IMG/VR virus record: IMGVR_UViG_3300020042_009256
Span: 1 to 64,000 of that record
Length of the DNA: 64,000 bases
Direction: 5' to 3' (one strand)
DNA from: a virus
Lineage: Duplodnaviria > Caudoviricetes
Positions 2,207 through 24,775 of this stretch are shown one piece after another. The translations under genes and the position numbers were made by a program. Position 1 is the first letter of the stretch, and each line of letters begins with the position of its first letter. Under the pieces are notes generated by a model. It searched no databases and was not told where the DNA came from. It saw only the letters and a program-made list of their open reading frames with translations.

Positions 2207-2233
2207 CGTCCTAAGCATGACGTTAAACTGCTT
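2207..2233 (+). promoter_or_regulatory. mini H-type pseudoknot motif, copy A
   Basis: CGTC-C-TAAGCA-T-GACG-TTAAAC-TGCTT: stem1 CGTC/GACG, stem2 AAGCA/TGCTT. Confidence 0.7.
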
Positions 2234-2261
2234 GACACTACTTACTCACTACTAATTCAAC

Positions 2262-4103
2262 ATGCAATTCCAACTCCCTGAAAACTTACAAGTCGAGTTA
2301 CTTGCATACGACCCAACGCTTAAGCAACTAGCTCGCACTACTAACGCAAAGACCAAATCATCTAAGCCTAAGTTTCCACTGGGTCAACCTTATACCTTTG
2401 TACCAGAAGATGCAATCAAAGCATCACTGGTACAAGATGCAATTAACTTGATCAATGCTGAGCCAGTCGAACGTAGGTACCATGAATTCAAACGCATCAC
2501 AGGCTTTGGCCCTGATGCTAAGAGTTCAACTGTAGGTATTTTGTATCACTATGAATCAGTGTGGTATGCCGCATGGCTACCCCCCAAAGGTAAAGAACAA
2601 GACTACGTGTATGGCTTTGCCTTTGCATATAAAGATAACAAGACTTCCAAAGGAATGATTCCTTATGTAGTAAGTCAAATCAATGACACACAATTAGTTC
2701 CGTATGGCAGATCTAACTTCATTACCTATTCACGTGTTGTAACCAAGCAAGACATCATCGATGGCTATGACCGTCCAATGTATCTGATACCACAATTGAC
2801 TTGGAATAAAGGTGGGCAGATGCGTGAAGTAGTTAAACGCTTCACAGATTCATTAGCAGATACTATTCCTACATGGAATGATTCTCGCAGTGGAATATTT
2901 GCACGCATTAAACATTCAAGCTACGTTAAGTTACTTGATATAGGACGTTACATTAGCAATGAAGAAGAATGGAATGCCTGGAAACCTACAGTTGATAACG
3001 TCTTTGAAATTATTGATGGTTTAAAGGGTGGCCCGCATGATTACAACTGGGGTTATTACAAACCTATTCGTCACATCATTGACAAACCATTCTTTCGTAA
3101 ATGGATTCAAGCAAGATGTGATGAAGTTATATTGCGTCTAAGTGATACAGAAAATCAATCAGAAATGATTGTTAAACATCCATGGAATCAAATCACTGCC
3201 TTGTTTGAAGCCATTGGTTATGTTAATCGTGTATGGCCTGACTGTCCTGTTGACTACTATCAAACACATATTAATAATTTACTAGCTCTTTATAATCCAC
3301 GTTGGCAGTTCGAAGGTAACCGCGTAAGTAATTGGTTGAATGAGCATATGCCTGTTGCATCATACTTTCACATAGTTGATAAACATATTAACCAAGATTC
3401 AGAGTTAGCTCGTACGCATCGTATGAATAGTACTATTTCTAGCAGCACTGGGCTTACTCAGTATTACTTTACTGAATGGAAAGATACATTACAAATGTTA
3501 CACAAAGTATTGTGTGACAGAGAAGCAAAGAACGAAACACTACCGCCGCCTAAGCGTTGGCGTCTCACTGAGTTTCATGACTATGTACAAGCAGAAGCAT
3601 GGAAAGTTGAAAACACTAATCACAAACTACCTCAAGACCTATTCCCTGCACCTATCAAAGTACAAGTTGAACATACAGAAAAAGTAAATGCAACGTCAAC
3701 ATCTGACAAAATGATTTACAACATTAAAGACAATTTAAATTACGGTAGGCCAATTCTTGATCTTATAGATGGTCATTATAAAGTAACACCAGTTAACTAT
3801 ACATTTTTCCAACCTATTGACACACATCAGTTAGCAGCGTGGGGTCAAACCGTACGCAATTGCGTTGGTGATGCATCCAGCTATGCCGATGGTGTACGCA
3901 AGAAGAAACATTTCATTGTCTTAGCAATGCTTGACAATAAGCCAATGTTCACTATCCAATTGGAAGTGGACAGGGGCATGATGTCAGTTAAACAAATTGT
4001 TGGCATATGCAATGCCAGACTCACTAGTGACCAACAAGATTCCTACACCAAAGCTTTTGCGCAGGCGTTGAAGCTTCAGGAATCTAGGCTACAATCTGCG
4101 TAG
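2262..4103 (+). CDS. PcfJ-like domain protein
   Basis: 613 aa; C-terminal LTEFHDY...LAAWGQTVRNCVG..SYADGV...FIVLAMLDNKPMFTIQL...VKQIVGICN matches the PcfJ pattern. Confidence 0.75.
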   Translation: MQFQLPENLQVELLAYDPTLKQLARTTNAKTKSSKPKFPLGQPYTFVPEDAIKASLVQDAINLINAEPVERRYHEFKRITGFGPDAKSSTVGILYHYESVWYAAWLPPKGKEQDYVYGFAFAYKDNKTSKGMIPYVVSQINDTQLVPYGRSNFITYSRVVTKQDIIDGYDRPMYLIPQLTWNKGGQMREVVKRFTDSLADTIPTWNDSRSGIFARIKHSSYVKLLDIGRYISNEEEWNAWKPTVDNVFEIIDGLKGGPHDYNWGYYKPIRHIIDKPFFRKWIQARCDEVILRLSDTENQSEMIVKHPWNQITALFEAIGYVNRVWPDCPVDYYQTHINNLLALYNPRWQFEGNRVSNWLNEHMPVASYFHIVDKHINQDSELARTHRMNSTISSSTGLTQYYFTEWKDTLQMLHKVLCDREAKNETLPPPKRWRLTEFHDYVQAEAWKVENTNHKLPQDLFPAPIKVQVEHTEKVNATSTSDKMIYNIKDNLNYGRPILDLIDGHYKVTPVNYTFFQPIDTHQLAAWGQTVRNCVGDASSYADGVRKKKHFIVLAMLDNKPMFTIQLEVDRGMMSVKQIVGICNARLTSDQQDSYTKAFAQALKLQESRLQSA

Positions 4104-4116
4104 TCCCCACAGACTT

Positions 4117-4146
4117 GCCGGTCTTAGCCTCGACACTAGGACCGGC
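4117..4146 (+). other. 11-bp intergenic hairpin without U-tract
   Basis: GCCGGTCTTAG-CCTCGACA-CTAGGACCGGC, 7 nt upstream of ATG 4154. Confidence 0.5.
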
Positions 4147-4153
4147 ACCACCT

Positions 4154-4369
4154 ATGACTGACTACACTGACGAACAGCTACTTGCTATGGCAGTGGCTAA
4201 CATGGGTGAATACATTCATGACCATTCACCTCATTACATTTTAATAAATGATCCTCGCAATGAGGATGACTACGATACATGGGTATATGGTTGTGAGCCA
4301 TTGCCACAAGATCACACTTGGCACTCAACATCAATTGATGTAGATGTAAGTCCAAGTGCGCCCGAGTAG
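4154..4369 (+). CDS. hypothetical protein; stop codon lies inside the tRNA gene
   Basis: ATG at 4154 in track ORF 4115..4369; ends GCG CCC GAG TAG. Confidence 0.65.
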   Translation: MTDYTDEQLLAMAVANMGEYIHDHSPHYILINDPRNEDDYDTWVYGCEPLPQDHTWHSTSIDVDVSPSAPE

Positions 4370-4435
4370 CCCAGCGGAAGAGGCAAGCGACTTAAAATCG
4401 TTCCAGCGTGAGTTCAAATCTCACCTCGGGTACCA
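4360..4435 (+). tRNA. trnL: tRNA-Leu(UAA), short variable loop, CCA encoded
   Basis: Acceptor GCCCGAG/CTCGGGT, discriminator A then CCA; D-arm GCC/GGC; anticodon stem AGCGA/TCGTT with loop CTTAAAA; T-arm GTGAG-TTCAAAT-CTCAC. Confidence 0.92.
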
Positions 4436-4455
4436 ACCACTACACATTTAATTCA

Positions 4456-4818
4456 ATGTCAATTCTTGCTTGTTTCCAACACATCATCCCTGACTTCCAT
4501 GCATTCAGTGATGAAGACCAACGCTACAACTTAGGTGCTACATGGACAGCCGCTGATGGCCTTAAGGATTACCACAACCTTGAGCTGCGTTACGTTCATA
4601 ACTCTGAACGGCTTGCGCTCCAAGGGGATCCTCAGCCTGATGGCAGCTGGAAATATGTAGAACCCAATGGTTCTGTCCACACTATTAATCCTGAACGTGC
4701 TAAGCATTTCATGGATCAAACCCAAGCACATGCAACGATCATGTGCACCATGTTAGATAAGCTACGCGAATCAGGTGTTATGTCCGAAGCACTAGACACC
4801 GAGGCTCAAGCTGCGTAA
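4456..4818 (+). CDS. hypothetical protein
   Basis: ATG at 4456 just after the tRNA, in track ORF 4408..4818. Confidence 0.75.
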   Translation: MSILACFQHIIPDFHAFSDEDQRYNLGATWTAADGLKDYHNLELRYVHNSERLALQGDPQPDGSWKYVEPNGSVHTINPERAKHFMDQTQAHATIMCTMLDKLRESGVMSEALDTEAQAA

Positions 4819-4838
4819 ACTACTAACGGAATGTTCTA

Positions 4839-4866
4839 GCCCCTGCGTAAGCGGGGGTCTTTCTTT
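4839..4866 (+). terminator. rho-independent terminator
   Basis: GCCCCTGC-GTAA-GCGGGGGT followed by CTTTCTTT. Confidence 0.7.
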
Positions 4867-5184
4867 ATGACAGACTCAAACATGATCGATCTTAATTTAG
4901 TTCAACAAGTTGTTGATCGTATTCCAGATCACACTTGGGTTGATGTGCGTATTGCAATCATTACAAATGTTGTAGACCACATGCCAGATGAAGTCTTGGA
5001 ACAACTGACAAATGATCCACATGGATATGAAGAAGCTGATGAAATCTTGTCAGCTTATTACACTGATGAACGCAACTTTAATTTAATTGAAGATGCATTT
5101 AACATCTTAGGTGAAGAGACAACTCTTTATTTATTAGATGGCTTGCAACTTGATAAAATTCAACCTATTGAAATAACAGAATGA
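4867..5184 (+). CDS. hypothetical acidic protein
   Basis: 105-aa ORF; ATGA overlap with next gene. Confidence 0.75.
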   Translation: MTDSNMIDLNLVQQVVDRIPDHTWVDVRIAIITNVVDHMPDEVLEQLTNDPHGYEEADEILSAYYTDERNFNLIEDAFNILGEETTLYLLDGLQLDKIQPIEITE

Positions 5185-5405
5185 ATTGCATTAAATGTGA
5201 CTCTACAGTTTGGCGGTGTACAAGAACAGCGCATGACACTGTAGATACTTACATTCGTCAACGGACATGCCAAAACTGTGGCAATAAAACTTATACGGTT
5301 GAAGTTGAACTGCCACCGTATTCAGTTGAGCATCATAGTAGAGACGGCATGCCTAAGATGACACGTTTACGCAATGCTCGCAAAATTACTTTCTCAGCTA
5401 CTTAG
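5181..5405 (+). CDS. zinc-ribbon protein similar to the NrdR N-terminal domain
   Basis: MNCIKC...IRQRTCQNCGNKTYTVE resembles M-x-CPxC...IRRRRxCxxCxxRFTTxE; no ATP cone. Confidence 0.6.
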   Translation: MNCIKCDSTVWRCTRTAHDTVDTYIRQRTCQNCGNKTYTVEVELPPYSVEHHSRDGMPKMTRLRNARKITFSAT

Positions 5406-5410
5406 TAACT

Positions 5411-5740
5411 ATGCCAACTCCAAAACAACCAGCTAAGTTTAAAACTGGTGATCGTGTAGCTGAAAAGCCTAAGCCTTCTTACATACAAACCAAAGACAAA
5501 GCAACAAGTGATCGCATTGCACAGTACCGAGTACAACGCTTAGGTACAGTCACTGGTTATGTATATAAAACTTCACGTACTGGAACTAGATCTCCATACG
5601 TGGAAGTTCAATGGGATCATCTTGCATCACCATGTACCCACGCTCAATGCAGACTTTGTTTTGAAAGTGAGCTGTCTACAGTTTTAGTAACTTACCGTGA
5701 CGCTATTACACTTGACTGCCCTACAAGTATTTGCATTTAG
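5411..5740 (+). CDS. hypothetical protein (possible SH3/KOW-like fold)
   Basis: FKTGDRV...GTVTGY...YVEVQWD. Confidence 0.65.
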   Translation: MPTPKQPAKFKTGDRVAEKPKPSYIQTKDKATSDRIAQYRVQRLGTVTGYVYKTSRTGTRSPYVEVQWDHLASPCTHAQCRLCFESELSTVLVTYRDAITLDCPTSICI

Positions 5741-5801
5741 TTTTTGTTTTGCTTTTTTTCTTGTTAGTTTTATTCTTTGGATTAAAACTTTATAAACAAC
5801 T

Positions 5802-6062
5802 ATGGCCAACGCAAATGATCTTACTAAAGACCGTGCTGCCCGTAGCAAAGGTCTTAATTTCACAGTTAACTTACGTTTATCTCGTGAAGAGATTGAAGCT
5901 GCACGACGTCTGGGAGATGGCAACATCTCAATGGGTGTACGTTGGGCTATACGTTATGCCAATGGGCGTAACATGAAACCAATCAAACTAAGTACCATGC
6001 TTAGGTCTGCTGCAGTACTTGCGGCTCAAATGGAAAATGCTAAGGGCGGGGCCACGCCATGA
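5802..6062 (+). CDS. small DNA-binding protein (ribbon-helix-helix-like)
   Basis: TVNLRLSREEIEAARRLGDGNISMGVRWAI pattern. Confidence 0.55.
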   Translation: MANANDLTKDRAARSKGLNFTVNLRLSREEIEAARRLGDGNISMGVRWAIRYANGRNMKPIKLSTMLRSAAVLAAQMENAKGGATP

Positions 6063-6376
6063 TCAGTGGTACGGCCCTACAGTTACCAACTAGAGCAGAC
6101 AGCAAGAACTCTAGTTCCCTTGGATGATGAGGCTGACGCTGTCCTTCTACACCTCATCAATAGTGTACAACAAATTAAAAGCAAGCAGTGGGTTGTTTCT
6201 CTAAATGTTTACGAGCATGCTGAGCTTCAACTTCTATACGCTTTAACTTTTTCTTTTGTTGTGCCAGGTAAACAATGAATGCTTGAGTCATTTATTTTGT
6301 AACAATTTATACAGAAAGTATAAGTCGTTACTGGAAATTATGTCGTTCATGCGGTAACATTCTCGTACGGGATAAT

Positions 6377-6400
6377 GGACCTGAGATGTCCTAAAACTCA
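6377..6400 (+). promoter_or_regulatory. mini pseudoknot motif, copy D (variant subtype)
   Basis: GGAC-C-TGAG-AT-GTCC-TAAAA-CTCA: stem1 GGAC/GTCC, stem2 TGAG/CTCA; preceded by GATAAT. Confidence 0.6.
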
Positions 6401-6425
6401 TTCATTAACTTTACTTATCATTCAA

Positions 6426-6647
6426 ATGCAACTTACTCCACTTCAAACTGATTGTGTTGTAAAGCTGGCGGCAGCTGATGTCCGTTCTGCAGACACTATG
6501 CTTGGCTTGCTTTTGTTAGAAGGTATCCGATTCTTTTACTGTGATAGCGAACCAGTTAATTCTATTACTTGTGGAGAATTAAACCACAATGTATTAAAAG
6601 AAATGGCTGATGCACTCAACAAAGAAATTCAAAACAACCTCAACTGA
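6426..6647 (+). CDS. hypothetical protein
   Basis: ATG at 6426 in track ORF 6375..6647. Confidence 0.6.
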   Translation: MQLTPLQTDCVVKLAAADVRSADTMLGLLLLEGIRFFYCDSEPVNSITCGELNHNVLKEMADALNKEIQNNLN

Positions 6648-6653
6648 ACTCAA

Positions 6654-7436
6654 ATGAAACTTCTTAAGTTTGCTACAGGAAACGCTAAGCTTTCTAAGCG
6701 TCTGATCTTCTCACTTCCAGCTGGATACTCATGCCCTTGTGCTGGTGTCTGTAAAACTTTTGCAGATCGTGCTACTGGTAAGATTACTGATCTACCACAG
6801 TACACCGGCACAGTTGCAGATGAGTTCCGTTGCTTTGCAGCCATGGCAGAGGTACGTCCTAACGTACGTGAAGCCCGTTGGCATAACTGGGATTTGATTC
6901 GTGAAGCTATCTACTCTACCGAATCAGATACCAAGAAACAACTTGCTGTATTAACGGGTGTTATTGAAATGTCTCTCGCTGTACAACCAGCACTAGACCT
7001 TGTCCGTGTACATGAGTCTGGTGATTACTACACAGAGTTGTACATGCATGCATGGATAAACGCCGCCAGGAATTTTAGTAACATGACGTTCTATTCGTTT
7101 ACTAAATCTCTTGGTATGTGGTACAACCTGCGCAAGTACATACCTAAGAACATGTACTTCACTGCATCATATGGTGGTGTACTTGATTCAATGATTGCTC
7201 AATACCCAAGGACATTTAAACGTTATGCTCGTGTGGTATACACAGAGCAAGAAGCTATTGACCTTGGTCTTGAGATTGATCATGATGACAGTCACTGCTT
7301 AGGTGACAAGCCATTTGCATTGTTAGTGCATGGTAGCCAACGTGCTGGGTCAGAAGCTATGGCTGCGTTAATGCAACGTAAAAAAGCTGGTAAGTTTGTT
7401 GGTTACAACAAGTCACAACAAAAGGTTGCAGCTTGA
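6654..7436 (+). CDS. GP88-like phage protein
   Basis: GNAKL...FSLPAG.SCP..C...C.A...RVHESGDYY...FYSFTKS resembles the GP88 family. Confidence 0.65.
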   Translation: MKLLKFATGNAKLSKRLIFSLPAGYSCPCAGVCKTFADRATGKITDLPQYTGTVADEFRCFAAMAEVRPNVREARWHNWDLIREAIYSTESDTKKQLAVLTGVIEMSLAVQPALDLVRVHESGDYYTELYMHAWINAARNFSNMTFYSFTKSLGMWYNLRKYIPKNMYFTASYGGVLDSMIAQYPRTFKRYARVVYTEQEAIDLGLEIDHDDSHCLGDKPFALLVHGSQRAGSEAMAALMQRKKAGKFVGYNKSQQKVAA

Positions 7437-7474
7437 AATAAATGTAGTAGCATCTGACCATCTTGCACAACACT

Positions 7475-7708
7475 ATGGCCTACGTTATTGCTACGTATAA
7501 AGATGGTCTCCCATACGCTGTTCATGCGTGTGGTGAGACCAATTCATTCCAGCTTGTTGCGTTAGACTCTGACGTAACTTTGAACAAGATCTTTTCCCAT
7601 CCTTATAGGGCTGGTGCATATAACATCTTGTCATGGATTGAAAAGAACGATGACCAGCTCTCCGGTATTAACCTCGATGTTTACGATGAAGCCAAGTTCC
7701 GTAAGTGA
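7475..7708 (+). CDS. hypothetical protein
   Basis: ATG at 7475 in track ORF 7463..7708; overlaps the polymerase start. Confidence 0.65.
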   Translation: MAYVIATYKDGLPYAVHACGETNSFQLVALDSDVTLNKIFSHPYRAGAYNILSWIEKNDDQLSGINLDVYDEAKFRK

Positions 7709-9509
7709 ATCTTGGCTTGTATTCGATTGTGAAACTGACGGGTTGTACGACCAGGCTACAAAAGTTCATTGCATTGTGATCTATGATCTCAACCTCGAAC
7801 AGACTTTTTCTTATGGGCCTGACAGCATTGCTGCTGCTCTTGCTCATTTGGCAACTGCCGATGTACTCATTGGTCACAATGTAATTTTTTATGACATTCC
7901 AGTTCTGCAAAAACTACATTCGTTTAACAGTAAATCACGCATTGTAGATACACTCATCTGTACCAGATTAATCTGGCCCAAAGAATTACTCTATGAACTT
8001 GACACAGAACAATATACGGAAGTTCCAAAGAAGCTACGCGGTTCTGCCGGACTCAAAGCTTGGGGCTACCGATTGGCTGATAACAAAATTAACTTCAAAG
8101 ATTTCTTGGAGTATTCCCAAGAAATGTTGGACTACTGCATCCAAGACGTTGCAGTTACCACAAAATTATTCAAACGCATCCAGGGACAAAACTATGCTGA
8201 GCCTGCACTCAAGTTGGAACATGACTTTGCTTTGGCGATTAATAAACAAATTAGATCAGGTGTTCCTTTTGATTTGGATGCAGCTCTTGATTTGGTGGAT
8301 GATCTCCGAGCAAAACAAAGCAAGCTTGAAACACAGCTAAAAGAATTGTTCCCACCTATAGAACATGAGTCTTGGTTTACACCTAAGGTAAATAATGCTG
8401 CTCGTGGTTATGTCAAAGGTGTACCATTCCGTAAGGTAAGAGTAGAAGAATTTAACCCTGGATCTAGACGACAGATTGCTGATCGACTACGCAAAAACTA
8501 TAACTGGGTGCCAGAGAAAGTAACAGCAAAAGGTAATCCAAGTCTTGATGATGAAGTGTTAGAACAACTACCGTACCCTGAAACAAAAACATTAGCAGAG
8601 TATATGCTAATTGATAAACGCCTTGGACAAATTGCAGATGGCAACAATGCTTGGATCAAACTTGTTAATAGTGATGATCTCCGTATGCACGGTGATGTTG
8701 TTACGAATGGTTGCATCACGGGTCGTTGTGCACACCGTTACCCCAACATGGGTCAAGTCCCGGCGGGATATTCGCCTTACGGAAAAGAATGCCGCTCTTT
8801 GTTCTACGCTCCTAACGGCTGGGATCTTATTGGTATTGATGCTAAAGCATTGGAACTTCGGTGCCTTGCTGGTTATCTTGCTCTTTGGGACAATGGCGAA
8901 TATGCTTCTCTTGTTGTTAATCCAGAAGTAGATATACATACATACAACCAAGAACAATTTGGTGTGGAAACCAGGGACATAAGCAAACGTCTGCTCTACG
9001 GAATGTTGTATGGATGTGGTGCAGTTAAAGCTGGTACAATTATTAACCCTAACGAAAAAAATCCTGACAAACTTAAACGTCTTGGCCGTAATGCTATTGA
9101 TGGTTTTATGAATGGTGTACCAGCACTTAAAAAATTGAAAGAACAAATTGAATGTACACTTATTGAACGTAATTATTTAATTGGATTAGATAAGCGTGCA
9201 TTGTATTGTCGTTCATCATTTAAAGGATTAAACGTATTGTTGCAATCGGCTGGTGCAATTCTTATGAAACAAGTTGTTGTAAACATTCACAACAACATTG
9301 AACAGAACCTTGGCTTGCCTTACGGCAAGAGCTGGGAGCAACTACTAATGATCCATGATGAAGTTCAGTTAACTTGTTATGGCGAATACACCGAAGCCAT
9401 TCGGGAGCAAGCTATGATGGCATTCCCTCAAGCCCAGGAGTTCTTTGACTTCCGTTGCCTCATCGAAGGGGACAGCAGGGTTGGAAGCAACTGGGCTGAG
9501 ACTCACTAA
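7686..9509 (+). CDS. polA: DNA polymerase family A with 3'-5' exonuclease (T7 gp5-like)
   Basis: ExoI FDCETDG, ExoII GHNVIFYD, ExoIII YCIQDV; motif A DAKALELR, motif B KRLLYGMLYG, motif C IHDEVQ. Confidence 0.97.
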   Translation: MKPSSVSESWLVFDCETDGLYDQATKVHCIVIYDLNLEQTFSYGPDSIAAALAHLATADVLIGHNVIFYDIPVLQKLHSFNSKSRIVDTLICTRLIWPKELLYELDTEQYTEVPKKLRGSAGLKAWGYRLADNKINFKDFLEYSQEMLDYCIQDVAVTTKLFKRIQGQNYAEPALKLEHDFALAINKQIRSGVPFDLDAALDLVDDLRAKQSKLETQLKELFPPIEHESWFTPKVNNAARGYVKGVPFRKVRVEEFNPGSRRQIADRLRKNYNWVPEKVTAKGNPSLDDEVLEQLPYPETKTLAEYMLIDKRLGQIADGNNAWIKLVNSDDLRMHGDVVTNGCITGRCAHRYPNMGQVPAGYSPYGKECRSLFYAPNGWDLIGIDAKALELRCLAGYLALWDNGEYASLVVNPEVDIHTYNQEQFGVETRDISKRLLYGMLYGCGAVKAGTIINPNEKNPDKLKRLGRNAIDGFMNGVPALKKLKEQIECTLIERNYLIGLDKRALYCRSSFKGLNVLLQSAGAILMKQVVVNIHNNIEQNLGLPYGKSWEQLLMIHDEVQLTCYGEYTEAIREQAMMAFPQAQEFFDFRCLIEGDSRVGSNWAETH

Positions 9510-9522
9510 CTAATTCTTAATT

Positions 9523-9702
9523 ATGATTGACTGGAAATCTGTAGCCTTTCGACTACATGAAATTGCTGAGTATTATTTTGATTGCAGTATGGACAGTTCT
9601 CTTCATGATGAAGAGATAGAAGTATTGCACACAAAATATCTTGATTTAGTATCTACTTTAATAACAGAAGAACCAATAGATCTTTCTGTATCTAACGAAT
9701 AA
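9523..9702 (+). CDS. hypothetical 59-aa acidic protein (below ORF-track cutoff)
   Basis: ATG..TAA, MIDWKSVAFRLHEIAEYYFD...; fills the gap after polA. Confidence 0.55.
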   Translation: MIDWKSVAFRLHEIAEYYFDCSMDSSLHDEEIEVLHTKYLDLVSTLITEEPIDLSVSNE

Positions 9703-9714
9703 AAATAATTGACT

Positions 9715-9741
9715 CGTCCCAGGTAAGACGTTAAACTGCCT
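9715..9741 (+). promoter_or_regulatory. mini pseudoknot motif, copy B
   Basis: CGTC-C-CAGGTA-A-GACG-TTAAAC-TGCCT: stem2 AGGTA/TGCCT, compensatory relative to copy A. Confidence 0.7.
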
Positions 9742-9761
9742 TCCACTAACCATCTGAACCA

Positions 9762-10565
9762 ATGAACTTTGTAACGGTGTGTGCCCAGGCAACTGAGGTG
9801 CCACGTGAGGTATATACCTCAGCAACTTCCACAGCATTACGTTGTAATCTTTTGTTACCTCCAGTAGGTAACAAAGCCCCTACTCCAATTGAATTCAATG
9901 TGTACGGAAAAGCTGCCGAACGTTTTCAACACACCACCAAGGGAGGACTTCTCTACATTCACGGCGCCAAGTTACGTCATGACTTGGACACAAGAACGCA
10001 CTCATTACATGGAGGCATTGTCACTCCGGTTACAGAAGCATTCCCAATCTTTAATACAGTCATCCTCGGTGGCCGTTGCGTTAAAGACATCCATCAAGAT
10101 GACGCCCGCGCTTTTAGAACAACGGCAGATGGGTTAATGATTTGTAATCAAACTCTTTCAGTTAATACTGGTCGCAACCAAGCTGATCTGTTTAACTTCT
10201 ATGCAATGAATACTGCAAAAGATAAGTTAAACAATGCGGAACTTCTGGTTAACTTTACCAGGAAAGGCACAGGTCTTTCAATCATTGGCCGCATAGTTAG
10301 CGATGCTTGGGTTGATAAAGAAACCAAGGAGAAAAAATTGAATACCAAAATTCAATTAATGTCTATGACCTTGGCTCCCAAGAACACGACCGCTGCTCCT
10401 GAAATCAAAGCTCAAACGACTGTTGCAACTGATGAAGTTGTTGGTCTTTGGGGTGGTAAGACCGCTGATGATAGTGACGTATGGAATCAAGCATCTGGCG
10501 GTGGCTTGCCTGATCTACCTGGTCAGTACGGCGCCGCACCTAACCTTGACGAAATTCCTTTTTAG
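9762..10565 (+). CDS. ssb: single-stranded DNA-binding protein with two OB folds
   Basis: Second domain NTVILGGR..FRTTADG...AELLVNFTRKG..IIGRIVSDAWVDKETKEK is SSB-like; first domain is similar (VYGKAAE); C-terminal tip DEIPF. Confidence 0.85.
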   Translation: MNFVTVCAQATEVPREVYTSATSTALRCNLLLPPVGNKAPTPIEFNVYGKAAERFQHTTKGGLLYIHGAKLRHDLDTRTHSLHGGIVTPVTEAFPIFNTVILGGRCVKDIHQDDARAFRTTADGLMICNQTLSVNTGRNQADLFNFYAMNTAKDKLNNAELLVNFTRKGTGLSIIGRIVSDAWVDKETKEKKLNTKIQLMSMTLAPKNTTAAPEIKAQTTVATDEVVGLWGGKTADDSDVWNQASGGGLPDLPGQYGAAPNLDEIPF

Positions 10566-10570
10566 ATAAT

Positions 10571-10594
10571 GGACCTGGGATGTCTTTAAACTCA
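10571..10594 (+). promoter_or_regulatory. mini pseudoknot motif, copy E (variant subtype)
   Basis: GGAC-C-TGGG-AT-GTCT-TTAAA-CTCA; both changes in the stems versus copy D give G-U pairs; preceded by GATAAT. Confidence 0.6.
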
Positions 10595-10616
10595 TCCGTA
10601 TTAAAACTAAAACACC

Positions 10617-11684
10617 ATGACTGAAGCATTACTTAACTCTGTCATTGACACTCCTCCTTCTCTGAAAACTCTTAAAGCTATGACTACCAAGAAAACCTCT
10701 GCACTTGCTACGCGTGGACTTGATTCATTCCGGCTCTTTCAATCCAAAGAATTTGTATCCGGATACCAAAACCTCATCACCATTCAGCCTCTTAACAAAT
10801 CAAAAACACGGGGTTGGTTCATCCGTAAGTCAGACCTGGACACTTGCGGATGGAGCGCAACTGAAAATCAGTTTGCTAAGTCTTCAGTTATCTGGAACTA
10901 CAAGCAAACTTTCGGTATGGCTCCCAATACTTCAGTTGAAGAAGGACTTAATTTTACTGAGCCTCGTTTACAAATCCTTCTACGTTCTCCCCTCATGGTT
11001 GAGGAAACCACAGGGATGAGGCAGACGATTGGTACCTTTGACAATCCCGATGTTAAAGAATGTTGGGAAGCTGACAAGATGGCAGCTGATCTTTCCAAGA
11101 GTAAAGGTGAAATGTACAAGCGCAAGTACAGCGTGCGTACCAAGTACCTTGTTTATATCTTAACTGAAGATAACAAGCGTGCCCATAAGATCCCTATGGT
11201 CTTGACCTTGAAAGGATTGAATGGTACGGATGTATCTGAAAAAGTTAAGTTATATGAAAAAGAAATGTCCAAGTGCTTGAGCAAAGCACTGGATGCTGAA
11301 GTACCCTTGTCATTCAATGAAAAGTTCTACGCCACTACCGTATTTGCTCCGGTACTTGCCAATGAAATGCGTGGAGAAAACAACGTTGAGATCTGCGCAA
11401 TTGAATCTTTTGACATCCCTGATTACAGCAGTCAAGAAGCTTCAGTTGAATCTTTGAATCGCATGTCGATTCCTGATGAAGATCGTGAATCAACTTGGAA
11501 GTTCCAGGAATTGTTTGCAGATTACATCAACCAACATGCTCGGCAAGATGCTGAGAAGTTGGGTGGTGCCTACGGTATTAAAGCCGGGGTTGAAATTCTG
11601 CCCGCTTCCAGGGGAGTCACGGAGGTTGAAGTGAAAGCTTTGCCTGCACGTGATGAACTTACTGGAGAAGACAGTTCATTCTGA
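10617..11684 (+). CDS. hypothetical protein (replication/recombination context)
   Basis: 355-aa ORF right after ssb; no confident family. Confidence 0.85.
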   Translation: MTEALLNSVIDTPPSLKTLKAMTTKKTSALATRGLDSFRLFQSKEFVSGYQNLITIQPLNKSKTRGWFIRKSDLDTCGWSATENQFAKSSVIWNYKQTFGMAPNTSVEEGLNFTEPRLQILLRSPLMVEETTGMRQTIGTFDNPDVKECWEADKMAADLSKSKGEMYKRKYSVRTKYLVYILTEDNKRAHKIPMVLTLKGLNGTDVSEKVKLYEKEMSKCLSKALDAEVPLSFNEKFYATTVFAPVLANEMRGENNVEICAIESFDIPDYSSQEASVESLNRMSIPDEDRESTWKFQELFADYINQHARQDAEKLGGAYGIKAGVEILPASRGVTEVEVKALPARDELTGEDSSF

Positions 11685-11939
11685 TACAGTAACTTGAGGA
11701 TTGGCTAAGTCATCTTGTTCAACAGCCTTGTTGTTAAAGATGAACATATCCTGAACCAATCCTCTAATTACACCTTGTCTTTGAGTGGCGATCCTTAACA
11801 AGAGGGTCGCCATTTCTTTTAAAGCACTGACTGAATTACATTCTTGAATTGATCGTTTGACTTTTTCTTCCCAGAATTTATCATCAAGCGTTGGTTCAAT
11901 TTGAAATTTAGACAATGAAACGTATTTGATTTTTTCCAT
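11676..11939 (-). CDS. distant NblA-like two-helix protein
   Basis: EPTLDDKF..SIQECNSVSALKEM..LLL..ATQRQGVIRGLV aligns loosely with NblA ELSLEQQF..VQNMS..AKDF..LY..VVRE..YQELL. Confidence 0.4.
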   Translation of the reverse strand: MEKIKYVSLSKFQIEPTLDDKFWEEKVKRSIQECNSVSALKEMATLLLRIATQRQGVIRGLVQDMFIFNNKAVEQDDLANPQVTVSE

Positions 11940-11972
11940 TAGTACAACCATGAACACTTTATTGTACCTGTT

Positions 11973-12173
11973 ATGAAACCTGAAGACAAAGCAGCATTGA
12001 AAGCAGGCGGCACTACGTTTTTAGTAGGCAGTCTGGTTGCTGTAGCATTTGCAAACCCTATGTCATGGATAGCTGTTGCTTATGGAACCTACAAGATCAG
12101 CAAAGAGGCGAGGCGTTCAGCCAGGGCCCGTGCTACCATTGATTCCTCAGATGAAAAAAACCTTTTCATCTAA
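11973..12173 (+). CDS. small membrane protein
   Basis: Hydrophobic GGTTFLVGSLVAVAFANPMSWIAVAYG. Confidence 0.6.
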   Translation: MKPEDKAALKAGGTTFLVGSLVAVAFANPMSWIAVAYGTYKISKEARRSARARATIDSSDEKNLFI

Positions 12174-12194
12174 ACTCAACCCTAACTCAAACCA

Positions 12195-13139
12195 ATGTCA
12201 ATCCAAACGCAAACGCAACTCACTACGGCGCAAGCTTCTATTTATTCTCGGTCTAACATCCGACGCGCCTTCCCAGACTTTGATGAGACTGAGATCGCTG
12301 GAATCTATTTGCGTGATACTGCTTGTCTTGTGGTGCGTCGGGATGGTAGTGAGCAAACTTATGATCGGTCTTTAATACAGTCTGCTTATCAAACGTATAC
12401 CCACCGATTAAAAGATTTCTTTTCTTACTTGGGTCCTAACTACAGGGGCCCATCTATTTGGCACAACAACGCCTACGTTATGTTCAAGGGTTGGAACTAT
12501 AGCCATGCCCTTGGTCACTTAACATCTAATGCTAAGCTCCAAGCCCATTGGGCTGATAAATTTATTCACCTTAAAGATGTCAACAAAGTTACAACGTTAT
12601 TACAATCAGATCAGACTGATCTTGGGCACCTCGTTGCCCCGGATGGGTTGCGGCTTCCGGCTGGGTCGGTTGACTTCGACGCTGACAATGAACAGGAACC
12701 CAACATGGGATCCCTTGCGGCTGAGCCTTATTGTTCATGTGGGTCCTTTCAGCGTCAACTGGCAAACCTCAGTGATTTCCAAATGGAAATTACAGGCTAT
12801 AAACCATGGTGCATCCACCTGACTTGGTTTCACAAATACCGTGAGTTACTATGCAAACGCACGGATGTACGTAATGCAGCACGTGGTGGTGTGGTTGAAA
12901 CATGCGTTGCTTGGTGGTATGCCCCTCCTAGGGATCACATCAGTGATGGACGTTTTGTTTTATTGCATACCAAGTCAGGGGCTCAGGCACCACTGAGTCA
13001 CTGGCGTACGTACAAACCTAAGGAGATTTACACCCAGCACAATGCATGGGATTTATTCTCTAGTATGCTAGATGCTGGTTATGTTCCGTTTCCTGGTACG
13101 TCACTTCCACAACTAGCTAATGCTGTTAAAAAACAATGA
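12195..13139 (+). CDS. SWIM zinc-finger protein
   Basis: YCSCGSF...PWCIHL (CxC-xn-CxH). Confidence 0.7.
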   Translation: MSIQTQTQLTTAQASIYSRSNIRRAFPDFDETEIAGIYLRDTACLVVRRDGSEQTYDRSLIQSAYQTYTHRLKDFFSYLGPNYRGPSIWHNNAYVMFKGWNYSHALGHLTSNAKLQAHWADKFIHLKDVNKVTTLLQSDQTDLGHLVAPDGLRLPAGSVDFDADNEQEPNMGSLAAEPYCSCGSFQRQLANLSDFQMEITGYKPWCIHLTWFHKYRELLCKRTDVRNAARGGVVETCVAWWYAPPRDHISDGRFVLLHTKSGAQAPLSHWRTYKPKEIYTQHNAWDLFSSMLDAGYVPFPGTSLPQLANAVKKQ

Positions 13140-13339
13140 CCCTGGCATCTATTCCTTTTGAAAAAATGACTGTTACTTGCAGCAATGAAGACAACGGTGG
13201 CATGTGTATCACCTTTGATTGGGATGACACCGACCCAGCATTTGAACCATGGAATCAAATGACTGAACATCAACAGCGTAGTTTTCTTTTGACTTCTATT
13301 TCTAATAGGCTTCAAAAAGATCTTGATGCTGCGTCCTAA
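13136..13339 (+). CDS. hypothetical protein
   Basis: ATGA overlap; stop codon falls within pseudoknot copy C. Confidence 0.65.
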   Translation: MTLASIPFEKMTVTCSNEDNGGMCITFDWDDTDPAFEPWNQMTEHQQRSFLLTSISNRLQKDLDAAS

Positions 13340-13357
13340 GAACGACGTTAAACTTCT
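13332..13357 (+). promoter_or_regulatory. mini pseudoknot motif, copy C
   Basis: CGTC-C-TAAGAA-C-GACG-TTAAAC-TTCT: stem2 AGAA/TTCT, compensatory versus AGCA/TGCT in copy A. Confidence 0.7.
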
Positions 13358-13378
13358 AATTTAAAACTAATTAGACTC

Positions 13379-13504
13379 ATGTTTGAATTTCTTACCTCCA
13401 TTGTTCTTCCTCAGATCACAAACATCTTGCGTGATCTTGCCCTGGCAGCATGCGTAGCATTGTTGACGTGGGCTATTAATAAAGTTCAAACTCAATTCAA
13501 CTAA
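13379..13504 (+). CDS. 41-aa hydrophobic peptide
   Basis: MFEFLTSIVLPQITNILRDLALAACVALLTWAINKVQTQFN; not in track. Confidence 0.55.
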   Translation: MFEFLTSIVLPQITNILRDLALAACVALLTWAINKVQTQFN

Positions 13505-13509
13505 GCACC

Positions 13510-14223
13510 ATGACACAAATCACTGCAACAAAACTTGAAAGCCTAAACGTCTTAAAACTTTACGAACACTATGGTGCCCTGGAGCGCAGTCTTCCTCTCC
13601 TCACTCCTGAGTCCCAAGACTTGGCAAAAGCTGAACTGGAACAATGCGCACAAATTCGTTCAGAAAAAATTGACCGAATTTACTACGCTATTGCTGCGCA
13701 CGAAGATGCGTTAGAACGTATCAAGAAAGAAGGTGAGCTGATGGCTGTGGCCAAGAAGCATCACGAGTCTCAGATCAAATCACTCAAAGGTTTGATCAGT
13801 TGGTTGCGGCGGGCACTGCCTGTTGATTCCAATAAGATTACTGGGCGTAACTACCAGTTCACATTAATCAAGAAAAAAGACTTGACAGTGGAAGTCTCAT
13901 CTAGTATTGAAGACTGGGATGAAAAACAACAGGAACAATTTTGTATCCTCCAAGAAACCACTACAACCAAACGTATTGTGGTATGTTCAATAGGTGGTGA
14001 ACTTCTCGAAGAGAAAACAACACCTTCAACTAAAACCGAACTATTACCTAATCTTGATGCAATCCGTAACGCGTATCAAACCGGCCAACACCTCCCCATT
14101 GGAGTCAAGGTTGTCCAAGAATATTCCATCCGTACCAAACGAATCTACTCCGAACCTAAAGTGGACTTGGATGCATCCGAATATTTCGGAGAACTTCTAC
14201 CAGAAGTTGGAACCTCCGACTGA
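13510..14223 (+). CDS. Siphovirus Gp157-like protein
   Basis: Coiled coil EKIDRIYYAI..LERIKKE...IKSLKGLI..KITGRNYQFTL typical of Gp157. Confidence 0.65.
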   Translation: MTQITATKLESLNVLKLYEHYGALERSLPLLTPESQDLAKAELEQCAQIRSEKIDRIYYAIAAHEDALERIKKEGELMAVAKKHHESQIKSLKGLISWLRRALPVDSNKITGRNYQFTLIKKKDLTVEVSSSIEDWDEKQQEQFCILQETTTTKRIVVCSIGGELLEEKTTPSTKTELLPNLDAIRNAYQTGQHLPIGVKVVQEYSIRTKRIYSEPKVDLDASEYFGELLPEVGTSD

Positions 14224-14464
14224 TCTAGAAGATGCACATATCAAAATGTCATGTCATCAGCATGCCGTTGATGATTTTGATTTGCAGATCCAGATGAATG
14301 AGCTGGAACAATCTATGTTGTGTGATGGAGAAGATGTCCTTCCTTATCAGACAGGTAAGATGGATGATCTTGAACAAAAAAAGTTAAAACTTTTGTTGGG
14401 TAAACGATTCCATCGAAATGCATCACGTGCTTACTGGTTTTATATTATGAAGGCAGATAAGTAA
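14171..14464 (+). CDS. hypothetical protein
   Basis: ATG 14171 in track ORF 13994..14464; true start uncertain. Confidence 0.6.
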   Translation: MHPNISENFYQKLEPPTDLEDAHIKMSCHQHAVDDFDLQIQMNELEQSMLCDGEDVLPYQTGKMDDLEQKKLKLLLGKRFHRNASRAYWFYIMKADK

Positions 14465-14470
14465 ACTGCC
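14445..14470 (+). promoter_or_regulatory. possible weak pseudoknot copy F
   Basis: TTAT-G-AAGGCA-G-ATAA-GTAAAC-TGCC has the same spacing as copies A-C, but stem1 is all A-U. Confidence 0.3.
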
Positions 14471-22840: not shown

Positions 22841-23569
22841 TTAATTTCCCAGGTGGATCAGCGGTAAGTTGTACAGACCAATGCGGTTGTAATCACGTAA
22901 ACCAAATTCATAACAGATGTTGGTCGTATCGCAGTCCCAAGTTTTGGTCAAGGGGTTGATACCTGAGAAACGTGCGCCTTCAATAAAAGGTTCTGCGTTA
23001 TACACACAGAAACAATTAAAAGTTGCGGCAACTTCTAGTCGGGGTGGCATATCAAAAATACGTGGGCCTCTAAAACCTGTATCAGATGATACAAGACGTG
23101 TTGCCCAGCTGTCATAAATCCAACGATGGTTTTGTACATCCATGGGATGCAAGCTATATGGAGATGCGATGTCATCGTCTGTAGTAAGGAGACAACTTAG
23201 CTGGTTTGCATTGTATTGAATGTCTGGTTCAATAAATAAAATTTTGTTATAAGAGGAAAGATCATCGACCTGTTCTAGGCAGCGGTTACGTGCTTTTGCT
23301 AAATAACAAACCCTATCCTCTGCTTGAATTGAACCAAAATATGGCCAGTTCTCTGTGGAGGAAGTGATCCAAACATTGCCTAACTGTTGTTTAAAAATTG
23401 ATTGGTTCTCGTACAGGTAAGCCGGAGATTCGTCTGTTGAATCATTTTCAAATACCGATAGATCAAAAGTGATCTCTGGGTTCCTAGCTTGAAGAGCAAA
23501 AATTTGTTTCTGCCATTTTGCCAGGAAGGGTTCCCGATTCCGGATGATGGTGCAAATTAAGATACGCAT
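22841..23569 (-). CDS. glycosyltransferase-like protein (GT-A fold)
   Basis: ILICTIIRN....ENDSTD...LAKARNRCL...ILFIEPDI; adjacent to nucleotide-sugar genes. Confidence 0.55.
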   Translation of the reverse strand: MRILICTIIRNREPFLAKWQKQIFALQARNPEITFDLSVFENDSTDESPAYLYENQSIFKQQLGNVWITSSTENWPYFGSIQAEDRVCYLAKARNRCLEQVDDLSSYNKILFIEPDIQYNANQLSCLLTTDDDIASPYSLHPMDVQNHRWIYDSWATRLVSSDTGFRGPRIFDMPPRLEVAATFNCFCVYNAEPFIEGARFSGINPLTKTWDCDTTNICYEFGLRDYNRIGLYNLPLIHLGN

Positions 23570-24732
23570 TCGTCTAGCTCCTTGGATAACTCGTTAATGT
23601 CTGACGGTTTGATGAAATGGTTATTGCCAATATAAAAAGAATGGGTGTGCATCTTTTCACTATTGGGAAGAGCAATTAATGATTCATAATCTTTCATGAA
23701 GGGTTGACGTAGCAAGTTGCCAACAAGAAAAGGTCTTGTCTCAATGCCCATGTATTGGAGAAGTGGTTTTAATTTTTTAACTACTTTAGCATCTTTACAA
23801 TGAAATGGTAGAGTCATTGCTGAGTTACCAAGGGGTATAGGTAAGGTATCAAACCAGGGTTTCTTGGTCATCTCCTCATAGAAAACACGATAGTTTTTAT
23901 TGCGTTGAGCATTCCATCGATCTAATTTTTGTAGTTGAACAAGTCCTAGAACTGCACCTGTTTCTACATTGCGGAAATTGTAACCTTTGGTTGGGAATAA
24001 AAAGGTTGGATCAATGTCCGGATTGTCTGCCTTGATAATCTTTTGGTAGTCAGGTGTGGTTTCCCTAGATAAACCATGGGAGCGCTTAGCACGTAACAAA
24101 TTGTAAAGATCTTTATCTTTGACGCAAACCATGCCGCCTTCAATGGTGGTCATGTGATGACCAAAGTAAAAGGAGAAGGTAGAGCCGATGCCTGTGTTAC
24201 CAACTTTGACATTGGTTTTTTGGTCGCGGGCACCATGGGATTCGCAACAATCTTCCAAGATGATTGTGTTGGGCCACAGTGCTGCAATCCGCCCCATGTC
24301 ATTGGAGATTCCTAAGATGTGAGTTAGATAGATAATGTCTGGTACTAGTCCCTTCTCGGAAAGAGCAGTTACTGATTCAACGGTTGGGCTATAGGTTTCG
24401 TAGTCAATGTCATAAAAATACACATTGTGTTTTTGCTGGCAGAAGGTTGAGATATTTGTTGCCCAGTTAATGGCTGGTGCAAAGATTGTTAACTTTTCTT
24501 TTGTTGGAAAGTGTTTTTCTTTTACGGCATCTAGGAGGAGGAAGTTTGCTACGGAACCGTTGGCTACATACAGGGAGTATGGGGAGCCTTGCCACTTACT
24601 CCATTGCTCTTCAAACTCCCGACACTTGGGGCCATTGGTAAAACGATCACTGGTTGCAATAAATTTGATTAGTGCCAGGCGCTCTTCTAGGCCTACGGTA
24701 TTTTTTTGAAGAGGCCAATTAAATTTAGACAT
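23557..24732 (-). CDS. DegT-family PLP enzyme, ColD-like GDP-4-keto-6-deoxymannose 3-dehydratase
   Basis: NGSVAN, LEDCCESHGA, SFYFGHHMTTIEGG (His instead of the Schiff-base Lys), GYNFR, GIETRP..GN. Confidence 0.75.
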   Translation of the reverse strand: MSKFNWPLQKNTVGLEERLALIKFIATSDRFTNGPKCREFEEQWSKWQGSPYSLYVANGSVANFLLLDAVKEKHFPTKEKLTIFAPAINWATNISTFCQQKHNVYFYDIDYETYSPTVESVTALSEKGLVPDIIYLTHILGISNDMGRIAALWPNTIILEDCCESHGARDQKTNVKVGNTGIGSTFSFYFGHHMTTIEGGMVCVKDKDLYNLLRAKRSHGLSRETTPDYQKIIKADNPDIDPTFLFPTKGYNFRNVETGAVLGLVQLQKLDRWNAQRNKNYRVFYEEMTKKPWFDTLPIPLGNSAMTLPFHCKDAKVVKKLKPLLQYMGIETRPFLVGNLLRQPFMKDYESLIALPNSEKMHTHSFYIGNNHFIKPSDINELSKELDECVS

Positions 24733-24775
24733 AACCCAAAATCCTTTTATAAACTATAGTGTAAAAAACAATTAA

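Follow-up and report, generated by a model that had tools for sequence, protein, structure and literature searches.

The 64,000-nucleotide stretch of DNA analyzed here in full (the window; bases 1–64000 of the 73,167-bp IMG/VR virus record IMGVR_UViG_3300020042_009256, rated 92% complete) carries five copies, A to E, of a compact H-type RNA pseudoknot on its + strand. The copies lie between early/replication genes, and together with their relatives they form a genuine covarying pseudoknot in which both stems are under selection for pairing. The same knot recurs in unrelated phages and in many bacterial phyla, and its core matches base for base that of coremin, an exoribonuclease-resistant RNA (xrRNA) of plant viruses. 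The reading that we favor, still tentatively, is that the knot would serve as a roadblock or insulator between cistrons that needs no protein and is most likely directed against machines that move 5′ to 3′. Among deposited phages the sole near relative of the window is the polar freshwater cyanophage Synechococcus phage S-EIV1, with ∼80% DNA identity across the polymerase–ssb region and a syntenic gene order. The related set consisted of S-EIV1 and 18 IMG/VR loci (given L numbers, as are the other loci below) fetched through their single-stranded DNA-binding (SSB) protein, at 49–85% identity.

The five copies, which start at 2207, 6377, 9715, 10571 and 13332, are 24–28 bases long and follow two plans. 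Type 1 (copies A, B and C) reads CGTC, an 8-nt loop, GACG, TTAAAC and, at the 3′ end, an arm complementary to the loop; type 2 (copies D and E) reads GGAC, a 7-nt loop and GTCC or GTCT. The type-1 pattern matched three times and the type-2 pattern twice in the 64-kb window, with 0.00 matches expected for either in 100 shuffles. An earlier description made from the letters alone (the original prediction) had listed these five copies with the same architecture, and both their positions and their sequences were confirmed.

Copy A (2207..2234, 50.6 bits) pairs 2207–2210 with 2219–2222 in stem 1 (P1, CGTC/GACG) and 2212–2217 with 2229–2234 in stem 2 (P2, TAAGCA/TGCTTG, the first pair being U-G), with C as loop 1 and TTAAAC as loop 3. 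It starts 5 nt past the TAA of the open reading frame (ORF) 1938–2201, and the ATG of the PcfJ-like gene lies 27 nt beyond its end; its orthologues precede the MQFQLP.. genes of the relatives. Copy B (9715..9741, 46.2 bits) has the same P1 and the same loop 3, a P2 of AGGTA/TGCCT with one G-U pair, and lies 12 nt past the stop of ORF 9523–9702 and 20 nt ahead of the ssb ATG. Copy C (13332..13357, 39.8 bits) combines CGTC/GACG with the weakest P2 of the set, the 4-bp AGAA/TTCT. The TAA of ORF 13136–13339 sits within its loop, the ATG of an MFEF.. peptide gene is 21 nt beyond its end, and its orthologues precede MFE.. genes. A 7-bp A/U hairpin (UCUAAUU/AAUUAGA, 13355–13375, z −4.9) overlaps the 3′ arm of P2 of copy C, so that knot and hairpin are mutually exclusive; the hairpin is absent from the copy C orthologue in L006.

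Copy D (6377..6400), of type 2, has P1 GGAC/GTCC, C as loop 1, P2 TGAG/CTCA, which uses the C of AAAC, and TAAAA as loop 3; it lies 98 nt past the upstream ORF and 25 nt ahead of the ATG at 6426. The same variant also stands before the GP88-like gene of L006, and GGAC/GTCC variants were found in L012, L014 and L019. Copy E (10571..10597) starts 5 nt past the ssb TAG and ends 19 nt ahead of the DUF5895 ATG, and its P1 is GGAC/GTCT with one G-U pair. For this copy the knot stood but its predicted stem 2 did not: TGGG/CTCA remains as an alternative P2, and the most likely P2 is GGAT/ATCC, with an 8-nt loop 3, TTAAACTC. The orthologues of copy E in L005, L006, L007 and L008 keep GGAT/ATCC while P1 varies (AGAC/GTCT, GGAC/GTCC, CGTC/GACG), and those in L007 and L008 retain ATCC without CTCA.

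The copies were first found with regular expressions, and a covariance model was then built from 49 distinct S-EIV1-like copies. The search of the relatives, recommended in the original prediction, gave 95 matches at E ≤ 10 in the window, S-EIV1 and the 18 related loci; with 95/95 matches on the gene strand, the element acts at the RNA level. Knots were found at matching positions before the PcfJ-like (MQFQLP..), GP88-like (MKLLKFS..), ssb, DUF5895 and small MFE.. peptide genes and a few others, and a knot precedes ssb in S-EIV1 and in 18/18 related loci. S-EIV1 (L001), a cultivated phage, has seven knots within the region covered, of which six matched the regular expressions and one is a variant. 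The ssb leaders show compensatory P2 changes (AGGTA/TGCCT, AAGTA/TACTT, AAGCA/TGCTT). In the 49-copy alignment 97.5% of the cells are paired, and its covariation score was reached by 0/500 shuffles. The outer stem-1 pair is CG, UA, AU, GC or UG, and three stem-2 pairs alternate between AU and GC or between CG and UA. In matches that only the model recovered and the regular expressions had missed, a stem-2 G-C pair that had seemed invariant becomes A-U or U-A (GGACA/TGTCC, GGTCA/TGACC).

A second alignment of 87 distinct copies was drawn from other IMG/VR contigs by a model search of 100 of the 117 loci described below, and here 94.3% of the cells are paired, again with 0/500 shuffles reaching the observed covariation. 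Shifting the partner by 1–3 columns lowered pairing to 21–48%. All five variable stem-2 pairs covary; pair 13–31, for example, is AU in 43 copies, GC in 41 and GU in 3, and is unpaired in none. Type-1 stem 2 often gains a sixth pair in this alignment, and loop 1 is therefore a single invariant C; it is a lone C in the 59/87 copies in which U9 has A or G at column 33 as its partner. Loop 3 is YWAAAC followed by U in 74 copies, with AAA conserved at 100%, C at 97% and T at 99% and with the variants TAAAAC (15/74) and CTAAAC (11/74); the bases beyond the U vary because they pair with the loop. In the same 74 copies the first loop base is an invariant C, the second U or C and never G, and the last U, A or C. 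Loop 2 is one variable base. The compensatory changes in both stems, the conserved A-rich loop 3 and the location in 5′ leaders of early/replication genes that had been proposed are thus all upheld.

Nested folding of single copies gave −3 to −4 kcal/mol (z about −0.5), values indistinguishable from those of shuffles. ViennaRNA cannot score pseudoknots, so energy favors neither side, and the case for the knot rests on comparison with relatives. A sixth, weak copy (14445..14470, + strand) had been included in the original prediction and was rejected as a family member. It consists of an A-U-only stem (TTAT/ATAA) and a GGCAG/CTGCC hairpin (−5.8 kcal/mol, z −2.7 for the hairpin alone), has neither the GUC/GAC stem nor the loop-1 C, and did not match the covariance model even at E ≤ 10 with filters off. 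It recurs solely as an identical copy in the closest relative, L005, and a loose descriptor finds ∼10 such matches per 420 kb of shuffled DNA, which places it within the chance rate.

In L017 (1489–2230) an extra gene is flanked by two knots, where L018 has one knot (at 1674) before the PcfJ-like gene, and in the window knot D is separated from the GP88-like gene by a 73-aa ORF (6426–6647) that L006 lacks. It seems that genes are gained or lost at knots. Directly 3′ of the knot that precedes the GP88-like gene, L011 (6371–6410), L016 (6780–6815) and L010 (6786–6825) carry a hairpin (10 pairs in L016, 14 in L011; −8 to −11 kcal/mol, z −3 to −4) with the ATG 47–51 nt away; that of L011 reaches −11.1 kcal/mol (z −4.1). 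The order first hairpin, spacer, second hairpin (hp1–spacer–hp2) known from coremin is reproduced at these three sites.

The knot is placed with respect to both neighboring genes. Outside T-[AG]-A at −8 to −6, which is the upstream stop codon, the information profile 5′ of the 74 copies is flat. In the S-EIV1 lineage and in unrelated contigs alike, the distance from the stop codon to the knot has a sharp mode at 5–6 nt, is most commonly exactly 5 nt and is almost never shorter; the exceptions are copy C and two related copies, which carry the upstream stop codon within the loop. In the S-EIV1 lineage the next ATG follows 18–30 nt past stem 2, most often 20–23 nt. Where the intergenic gap is long, the knot stays beside the downstream AUG in 8 of ∼11 cases, copy D included, which points to a 5′-leader role in this lineage. 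A site 5 nt past the stop is about the closest at which a structure escapes unwinding by the helicase of a terminating ribosome, and 18–30 nt before an AUG is about the closest that clears an initiating 30S subunit. Since the distances approach the limits of the ribosome footprints, the knot looks like an incompressible unit packed between two ribosomes.

The spacers from knot to ATG (2235..2261, 6401–6425, 9742–9761, 10598–10616 and 13358–13378, all + strand) are poor in G and have a predicted free energy of 0 kcal/mol in all five cases. As predicted, they are A/C-rich and lack a Shine-Dalgarno (SD) sequence, but these traits do not set the knot apart: the majority of early genes in this phage, knot-free ones included, have such leaders, and SD-less initiation therefore does not require the knot. 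The early genes (+ strand, 1–16 kb) have G-poor, CA-rich, SD-less leaders and several late genes (− strand, 44–63 kb) have AAGGAG or GAGG-type sites, which suggests two modes of translation initiation within one phage. No slippery heptamers were seen at the window copies, and in-frame extensions beyond the stop codons meet new stops before the next ATG; a recoding reading was rejected on these grounds.

The knot extends far beyond the S-EIV1 lineage. A pattern scan of IMG/VR gave 117 loci and, among them, 107 complete knots; the full knot is present on ∼100 unrelated viral contigs, where contexts are mixed: SD-bearing phage genes, tRNA-adjacent sites, sites that come right behind terminator-like hairpins, and arrays in which up to four knots stand in tandem. 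In the unrelated viral contigs L149, L178, L203, L212, L222 and L253 the knot lies 4–5 nt before the 5′ end of a tRNA gene (11 nt in L207). Arrays of 2–4 knots spaced ∼3–15 nt apart were seen in L182 (about 11120–11200 and 3700–3790), L258 (361–420), L055, L059, L113, L120 and L136; such arrays occur in viral contigs, Anaerolineae and other bacteria. In a crude count of gene orientation over three locus sets, the knot was co-oriented with at least one neighboring gene in almost every case, mostly with co-directional genes on both sides, and both 5′-only and 3′-only contexts were also present. In the other viral contigs a co-oriented gene lay only upstream of 24 knots and only downstream of 11.

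In prokaryotes, scanned with one genome per species, at least 122 pattern matches were obtained, and among the matches listed 68/122 form a complete knot, complementary stem 2 included. The bacterial knots among these matches belong to Firmicutes, Omnitrophota, Planctomycetota, Saccharibacteria, Bacteroidota, Desulfobacterota and Anaerolineae, and one archaeal metagenome-assembled genome also has the knot. In other hosts it stands before genes with a strong SD at variable distance, before tRNAs, or with nothing downstream; in bacteria it also precedes rplK (L11). A phage-wide regulon, as originally inferred, does not account for a knot that also occurs in unrelated phages and across many bacterial phyla, stands before tRNAs and forms arrays.

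A conserved short ORF (..RYMLRPVAHCKEGC..) runs into the knot in Omnitrophota, Planctomycetota, Anaerolineae and others, mostly ahead of an Rrf2-family regulator (L024, L040, L081, L085, L086, L096, L100, L103, L108, L110, L113, L117, L124 and L136–L138). The peptide consensus is ..(R/K)(Y/F)M(L/I)(R/P)(P/R)VAHC(K/S)(E/D)GC.., with no matching NCBIfam family. The stop codon of the short ORF falls at varying places in or near the knot, the next gene is once hybrid-cluster-protein-like, and several Omnitrophota copies have a U-tract after the knot. Short ORF and knot together look like a leader-peptide or attenuator unit.

The element is nearly absent from the chromosomes of the host phylum. A scan of 401 cyanobacterial genomes gave 21 pattern matches, not above the reversed-pattern control and with few true knots; cyanobacterial chromosomes therefore do not usually carry the knot, and its reading as a host-encoded element was rejected. 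The picocyanobacterial genomes G334, G168 and G133 (L271–L273, L276 and L278–L280) hold a different repeat, which starts with CGTCCTCAGAATGACGTAAAAC and forms an 11-bp hairpin with a downstream GTCATCCTGAG; five copies were seen in one ∼1.9-Mb genome.

These data suggest a mechanism that we put forward with caution. On the polycistronic early/replication mRNA each copy is a coremin-type knot that folds by itself, with a 4-bp stem 1 (NGUC/GACN), C as loop 1, a 4–6-bp Watson-Crick stem 2 and YWAAAC as loop 3; loop 3 probably lies in the minor groove of stem 1 as a tertiary triplex. It would occupy the smallest gap in which it stays folded between a ribosome terminating upstream and one initiating downstream. 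So placed, it would chiefly stop RNase J, RNase E scanning from the 5′ end, and sliding post-termination ribosomes, and the cistron behind it (ssb, the polymerase unit or the PcfJ-like gene, among others) would retain a protected 5′ end, with a translation that does not depend on its upstream neighbor. Coremin halts Xrn1 one nucleotide ahead of stem 1, is a block to scanning ribosomes, raises −1 frameshifting by 20–30% in vitro, and works without protein in vitro (PMC6546385, PMC10520033, PMC10321173). A flaviviral xrRNA blocks bacterial RNase J1 in vitro, and the principle can therefore transfer to bacterial enzymes. Of the functions originally proposed, the RNase J roadblock agrees best with the close match between the knot and the coremin xrRNA. 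We favor the 5′ to 3′ direction because of the coremin precedent, because the conserved half, with stem 1 and loop 3, is turned to the 5′ side, and because in this lineage the knot keeps to the downstream start. A narrower version of the proposal, to which we give appreciably less weight, is that the knot may be the prokaryotic counterpart of viral xrRNAs, resistant to RNase J and/or to RNase E scanning, with the fold and core of coremin; it would then cut the early transcript into separately stable messages, a long-lived ssb mRNA for instance.

Several observations weigh against a roadblock to 5′ to 3′ machines. The second coremin hairpin, hp2, is required for Xrn1 resistance in coremin and in the related xrRNA_WCC (PMC6546385, PMC10520033, PMC10321173), and it is absent after 4/5 window copies. 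Pseudoknots of the beet western yellows virus (BWYV) type do not stall Xrn1 even with hp2 added (PMC10321173). Where the stop codon lies within the loop (copy C and two related copies), ribosomes must melt the knot. Each stem alone is unremarkable at −3 to −4 kcal/mol (z about −0.5), and stability would rest on tertiary contacts. Finally, the coupling to the stop codon, the tRNA-adjacent copies and the 2:1 excess of upstream-only contexts fit a cap at the 3′ end of the upstream message at least as well.

The 3′-end cap is the strongest rival, and we regard it as possible though clearly less probable than the roadblock. After an endonucleolytic cut in the spacer, or an RNase P cut where a tRNA follows, the knot would stop 3′ to 5′ exonucleases and stabilize the upstream cistron in the manner of REP elements and terminator hairpins. 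The mode at exactly 5 nt past the upstream stop, found within and outside the S-EIV1 lineage, the knots 4–5 nt before tRNA genes and the ratio of 24 upstream-only to 11 downstream-only knots all argue for it, and the G-poor single-stranded spacer may be a plausible RNase E target. Yet in long gaps of the S-EIV1 lineage the knot stays with the downstream AUG (8 of ∼11, with copy D), some knots directly follow terminator-like hairpins with T-runs, where a cap would be redundant, the conserved, triplex-type half (stem 1 with loop 3) is on the 5′ side, and the published coremin activities are all directed against 5′ to 3′ machines. Cap and 5′ to 3′ roadblock are compatible, not mutually exclusive. 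An insulator directed at ribosomes alone, which would block post-termination or read-through ribosomes or modulate termination and so uncouple translation of the neighbors, appears doubtful. A knot 5 nt past the stop would sit at the mRNA entrance of the stop-decoding ribosome, coremin blocks scanning ribosomes and raises frameshifting, and in bacteria the knot overlaps the end of the conserved short ORF; however, knots before tRNAs or without an upstream co-oriented gene cannot act in this manner, and the window copies have neither slippery heptamers nor in-frame extensions. That the knot docks on the 30S platform or on ribosomal protein S1 and boosts an SD-less start ∼20 nt downstream, which the original prediction had entertained, is improbable. 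The constant 18–30 nt to the AUG and the unstructured G-poor leaders would suit such a standby site, but many early genes have the identical SD-less leader and no knot, and in other hosts the knot precedes strong-SD genes at variable distance, tRNAs or nothing.

Binding of a trans-acting protein, namely the phage SSB on a regulon of replication genes as in T4 gene 32, had also been proposed and is, in our estimate, unlikely. A knot stands before ssb in S-EIV1 and in 18/18 related loci, and the succession of knot and unstructured leader is reminiscent of the T4 gene 32 operator. Against this, unrelated phages, many bacterial phyla and eukaryotic RNA viruses carry the identical motif and have no such protein in common; the motif is also found ahead of tRNAs and in tandem arrays, and the bases conserved in it belong to the coremin fold, which is active without protein in vitro. 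With the same knot in unrelated phages and phyla, a partner must be universal or absent, and a phage-specific SSB cannot be the general ligand. A new ribozyme or an endonuclease guide that cuts polycistronic RNA at gene junctions is less likely again: the spread over phyla, the gene junctions, the tandem copies and the tRNA neighbors recall phage hammerhead, twister and hepatitis delta virus-like ribozymes, but at 24–28 nt the element is far smaller than any self-cleaving class known to us, no Rfam ribozyme matches it, and coremin RNAs are stable in the published assays. We consider a ligand sensor with the size and topology of the preQ1-I riboswitch very unlikely. Its appeal lies in the compact H-type fold, whose loop 3 is A-rich and which is located in 5′ leaders, and in the U-tract after some bacterial copies; no metabolic theme, however, unites the downstream genes, which include those for replication, L11, Rrf2 regulators, phage structural proteins and tRNAs, loop 2 consists of a single variable base and offers no conserved ligand-pairing C, the window copies have no expression platform, and RF00522 gave no match at E ≤ 10 on the 76-nt target. 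Equally remote is a signal at the DNA level, either a promoter with TAAACT as its −10 box or a site of gene-cassette recombination. Copy B does read TTGACT-17 nt-TAAACT, and the extra knot-flanked genes that separate the close relatives L017 and L018 mean that the repeats may serve as crossovers. However, there is no conserved −35 and the only weak upstream signal is the stop codon TAA/TGA at −8 to −6; sigma-70-like sites are not enriched, the variants TAAAAC and TAAAAG spoil the −10 box, two crossing covarying helices are unexpected for a duplex-DNA site, and the RNA viruses in which coremin acts lack a DNA stage. The promoter reading was rejected on the lack of enrichment and of any conserved upstream signal save the stop codon.

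The genes next to the knots belong to a + strand early/replication module that covers 1–16 kb of the window and includes PcfJ-like, tRNA-Leu, GP88-like, family A DNA polymerase, SSB, DUF5895 and Gp157-like genes. Copy A is followed by the gene for the PcfJ-like protein (2262..4103, +; PF14284, E 8e-9). Copy D heads a unit at 6426..9509 (+) made up of the 73-aa ORF, the GP88-like gene (6654–7436, +; PF17338, E 2e-35) and family A DNA polymerase (7614–9509, +; PF00476, E 5e-33). Next come ssb behind copy B (9762..10565, +; PF00436, E 4e-7, annotated as SSB in S-EIV1) and the DUF5895 gene behind copy E (10617..11684, +; PF19247, E 4e-14). Behind copy C lie the gene for the 41-aa MFEF.. peptide (13379–13504, +), whose N-terminus is kept in the relatives, and the Gp157-like gene (13510–14223, +; PF05565). 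The module also holds the tRNA-Leu gene (anticodon UAA, 4360–4435), and a terminator-like hairpin with a T-run (4839–4868) lies immediately before the gene at 4867. No phage RNA polymerase was found among the ten largest window ORFs scanned. Elsewhere in the window, a cyanophage sugar-modification cluster occupies 23557–25804 and 30425–31687 (a DegT/DnrJ-type aminotransferase on the − strand, a GDP-mannose 4,6-dehydratase at E 2e-133 and a group 1 glycosyltransferase), and a prim-pol/D5-type primase-helicase lies at 27394–30045.

None of the 4227 families of Rfam 15 matched the motif at gathering threshold or at E ≤ 10 (window, 76-nt target and 12 bacterial loci), and the suspected kinship with a DUF805 or DUF805b-type motif falls with this result. 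In the papers searched we found no report of the element in phages or bacteria, although a structured-RNA survey of IMG/VR (PMC10690425) may hold it unnamed, and no description of an xrRNA-type structured roadblock in either. New here are the orthologous placement in the S-EIV1 lineage, with a knot before every ssb, the independence of the SD-less leaders from the knot, and the near absence of the element from cyanobacterial chromosomes. A common and easily recognized intergenic RNA is thus missing from Rfam, which matters for annotation. The phage and bacterial variants, hundreds of them with a covarying Watson-Crick stem 2, give comparative support to the hypothesized coremin fold without a solved structure and offer a simple bacterial system for testing it. 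A roadblock, if true, would account for the division of SD-less polycistronic early mRNAs into units whose stability and translation are independent, and as a portable 27-nt stabilizer or insulator the knot could serve synthetic operons.

Compared with known systems, the knot shares with the preQ1-I riboswitch (RF00522) a length of ∼30 nt, short stems 1 and 2 and an A-rich loop 3, but lacks the conserved loop-2 C, sequestration of the SD, que genes downstream and an Rfam match. REP elements and bacterial interspersed mosaic elements (BIME), the ompA 5′ hairpin and the Bacillus STAB-SD are lineage-specific mRNA stabilizers made of simple hairpins or SD-like sites. Like the knot, they are repeated structured elements just after stops or at 5′ ends that partition the stability of operon mRNA, whereas the cyanophage element is a sequence-conserved pseudoknot found across phyla. 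The leader pseudoknot of T4 and T2 gene 32 serves one gene and is bound by gp32 in SSB autoregulation. It too is an H-type pseudoknot 5′ of an unstructured phage ssb leader, but the knot described here shows no sequence similarity to it, is multi-copy and is not specific to ssb: it precedes at least five different downstream genes per genome, tRNAs, and genes in bacteria. The −1 frameshifting pseudoknots of luteoviruses and enamoviruses, such as those of BWYV and potato leafroll virus (PLRV), are closer in build, with 26–28 nt, a short stem 1, an A-rich loop in the minor groove, a loop-1 C beside stem 2, a one-base junction between the stems and resistance to the ribosomal helicase (PMC10321173). 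They differ from the phage knot, which has a stop codon 5 nt upstream and no slippery heptamer, and their sequence is unrelated to it except for the A-rich loop.

Coremin is the closest known relative. [quoted passage not shown] The spacer after hp1, UUAAACUAC, starts UUAAACU; C18 and U19 are essential, and U14A and U13C are natural variants. The loop of hp1, lp1, has 6–8 nt and the consensus YGAD or YGNNAD, the first base being C or U, from which the octaloop GRV departs. An H-type knot between the loop and the bases after AAA was hypothesized by the authors, xrRNA_WCC was selected in vitro, and the assays, in which the RNAs were stable and not self-cleaving, covered plant-virus sequences only (PMC6546385, PMC10520033, PMC10321173). 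Phages and bacteria are not mentioned in these three papers. The two elements differ in several respects. Stem 2 is a full, covarying 4–6-bp Watson-Crick helix in the phage knot and 2–3 non-canonical contacts in coremin; the phage and bacterial hosts have no Xrn1; and the sites are intergenic in mRNA and in the 3′ untranslated region, respectively. The second loop base of the phage knot is U or C, which departs from the lp1 consensus while the first base, C, fits it. In place of hp2, unstructured RNA follows copies A, B, D and E and the hairpin after copy C overlaps stem 2; a hairpin like hp2 follows the knot in a minority of related copies (e.g., L011 and L016). The phage knot nevertheless has GUCC...GACGUUAAACU base for base. 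Stem 1 of type 1 (copies A, B and C) is CGUC/GACG as in BNYVV, with GGAC/GTCC or GTCT in copies D and E, and loop 3 with its U (YWAAAC + U) corresponds to the conserved spacer, which starts UUAAACU in both and has UAAAAC and CUAAAC as natural variants in both. Both also share the C of loop 1, invariant in the phage knot and replaceable by U in coremin, loops of 6–8 nt and tandem copies. With canonical loop pairs in a stem 2 of 4–6 bp and a one-base loop 1, the phage knot has the features of xrRNA_WCC.

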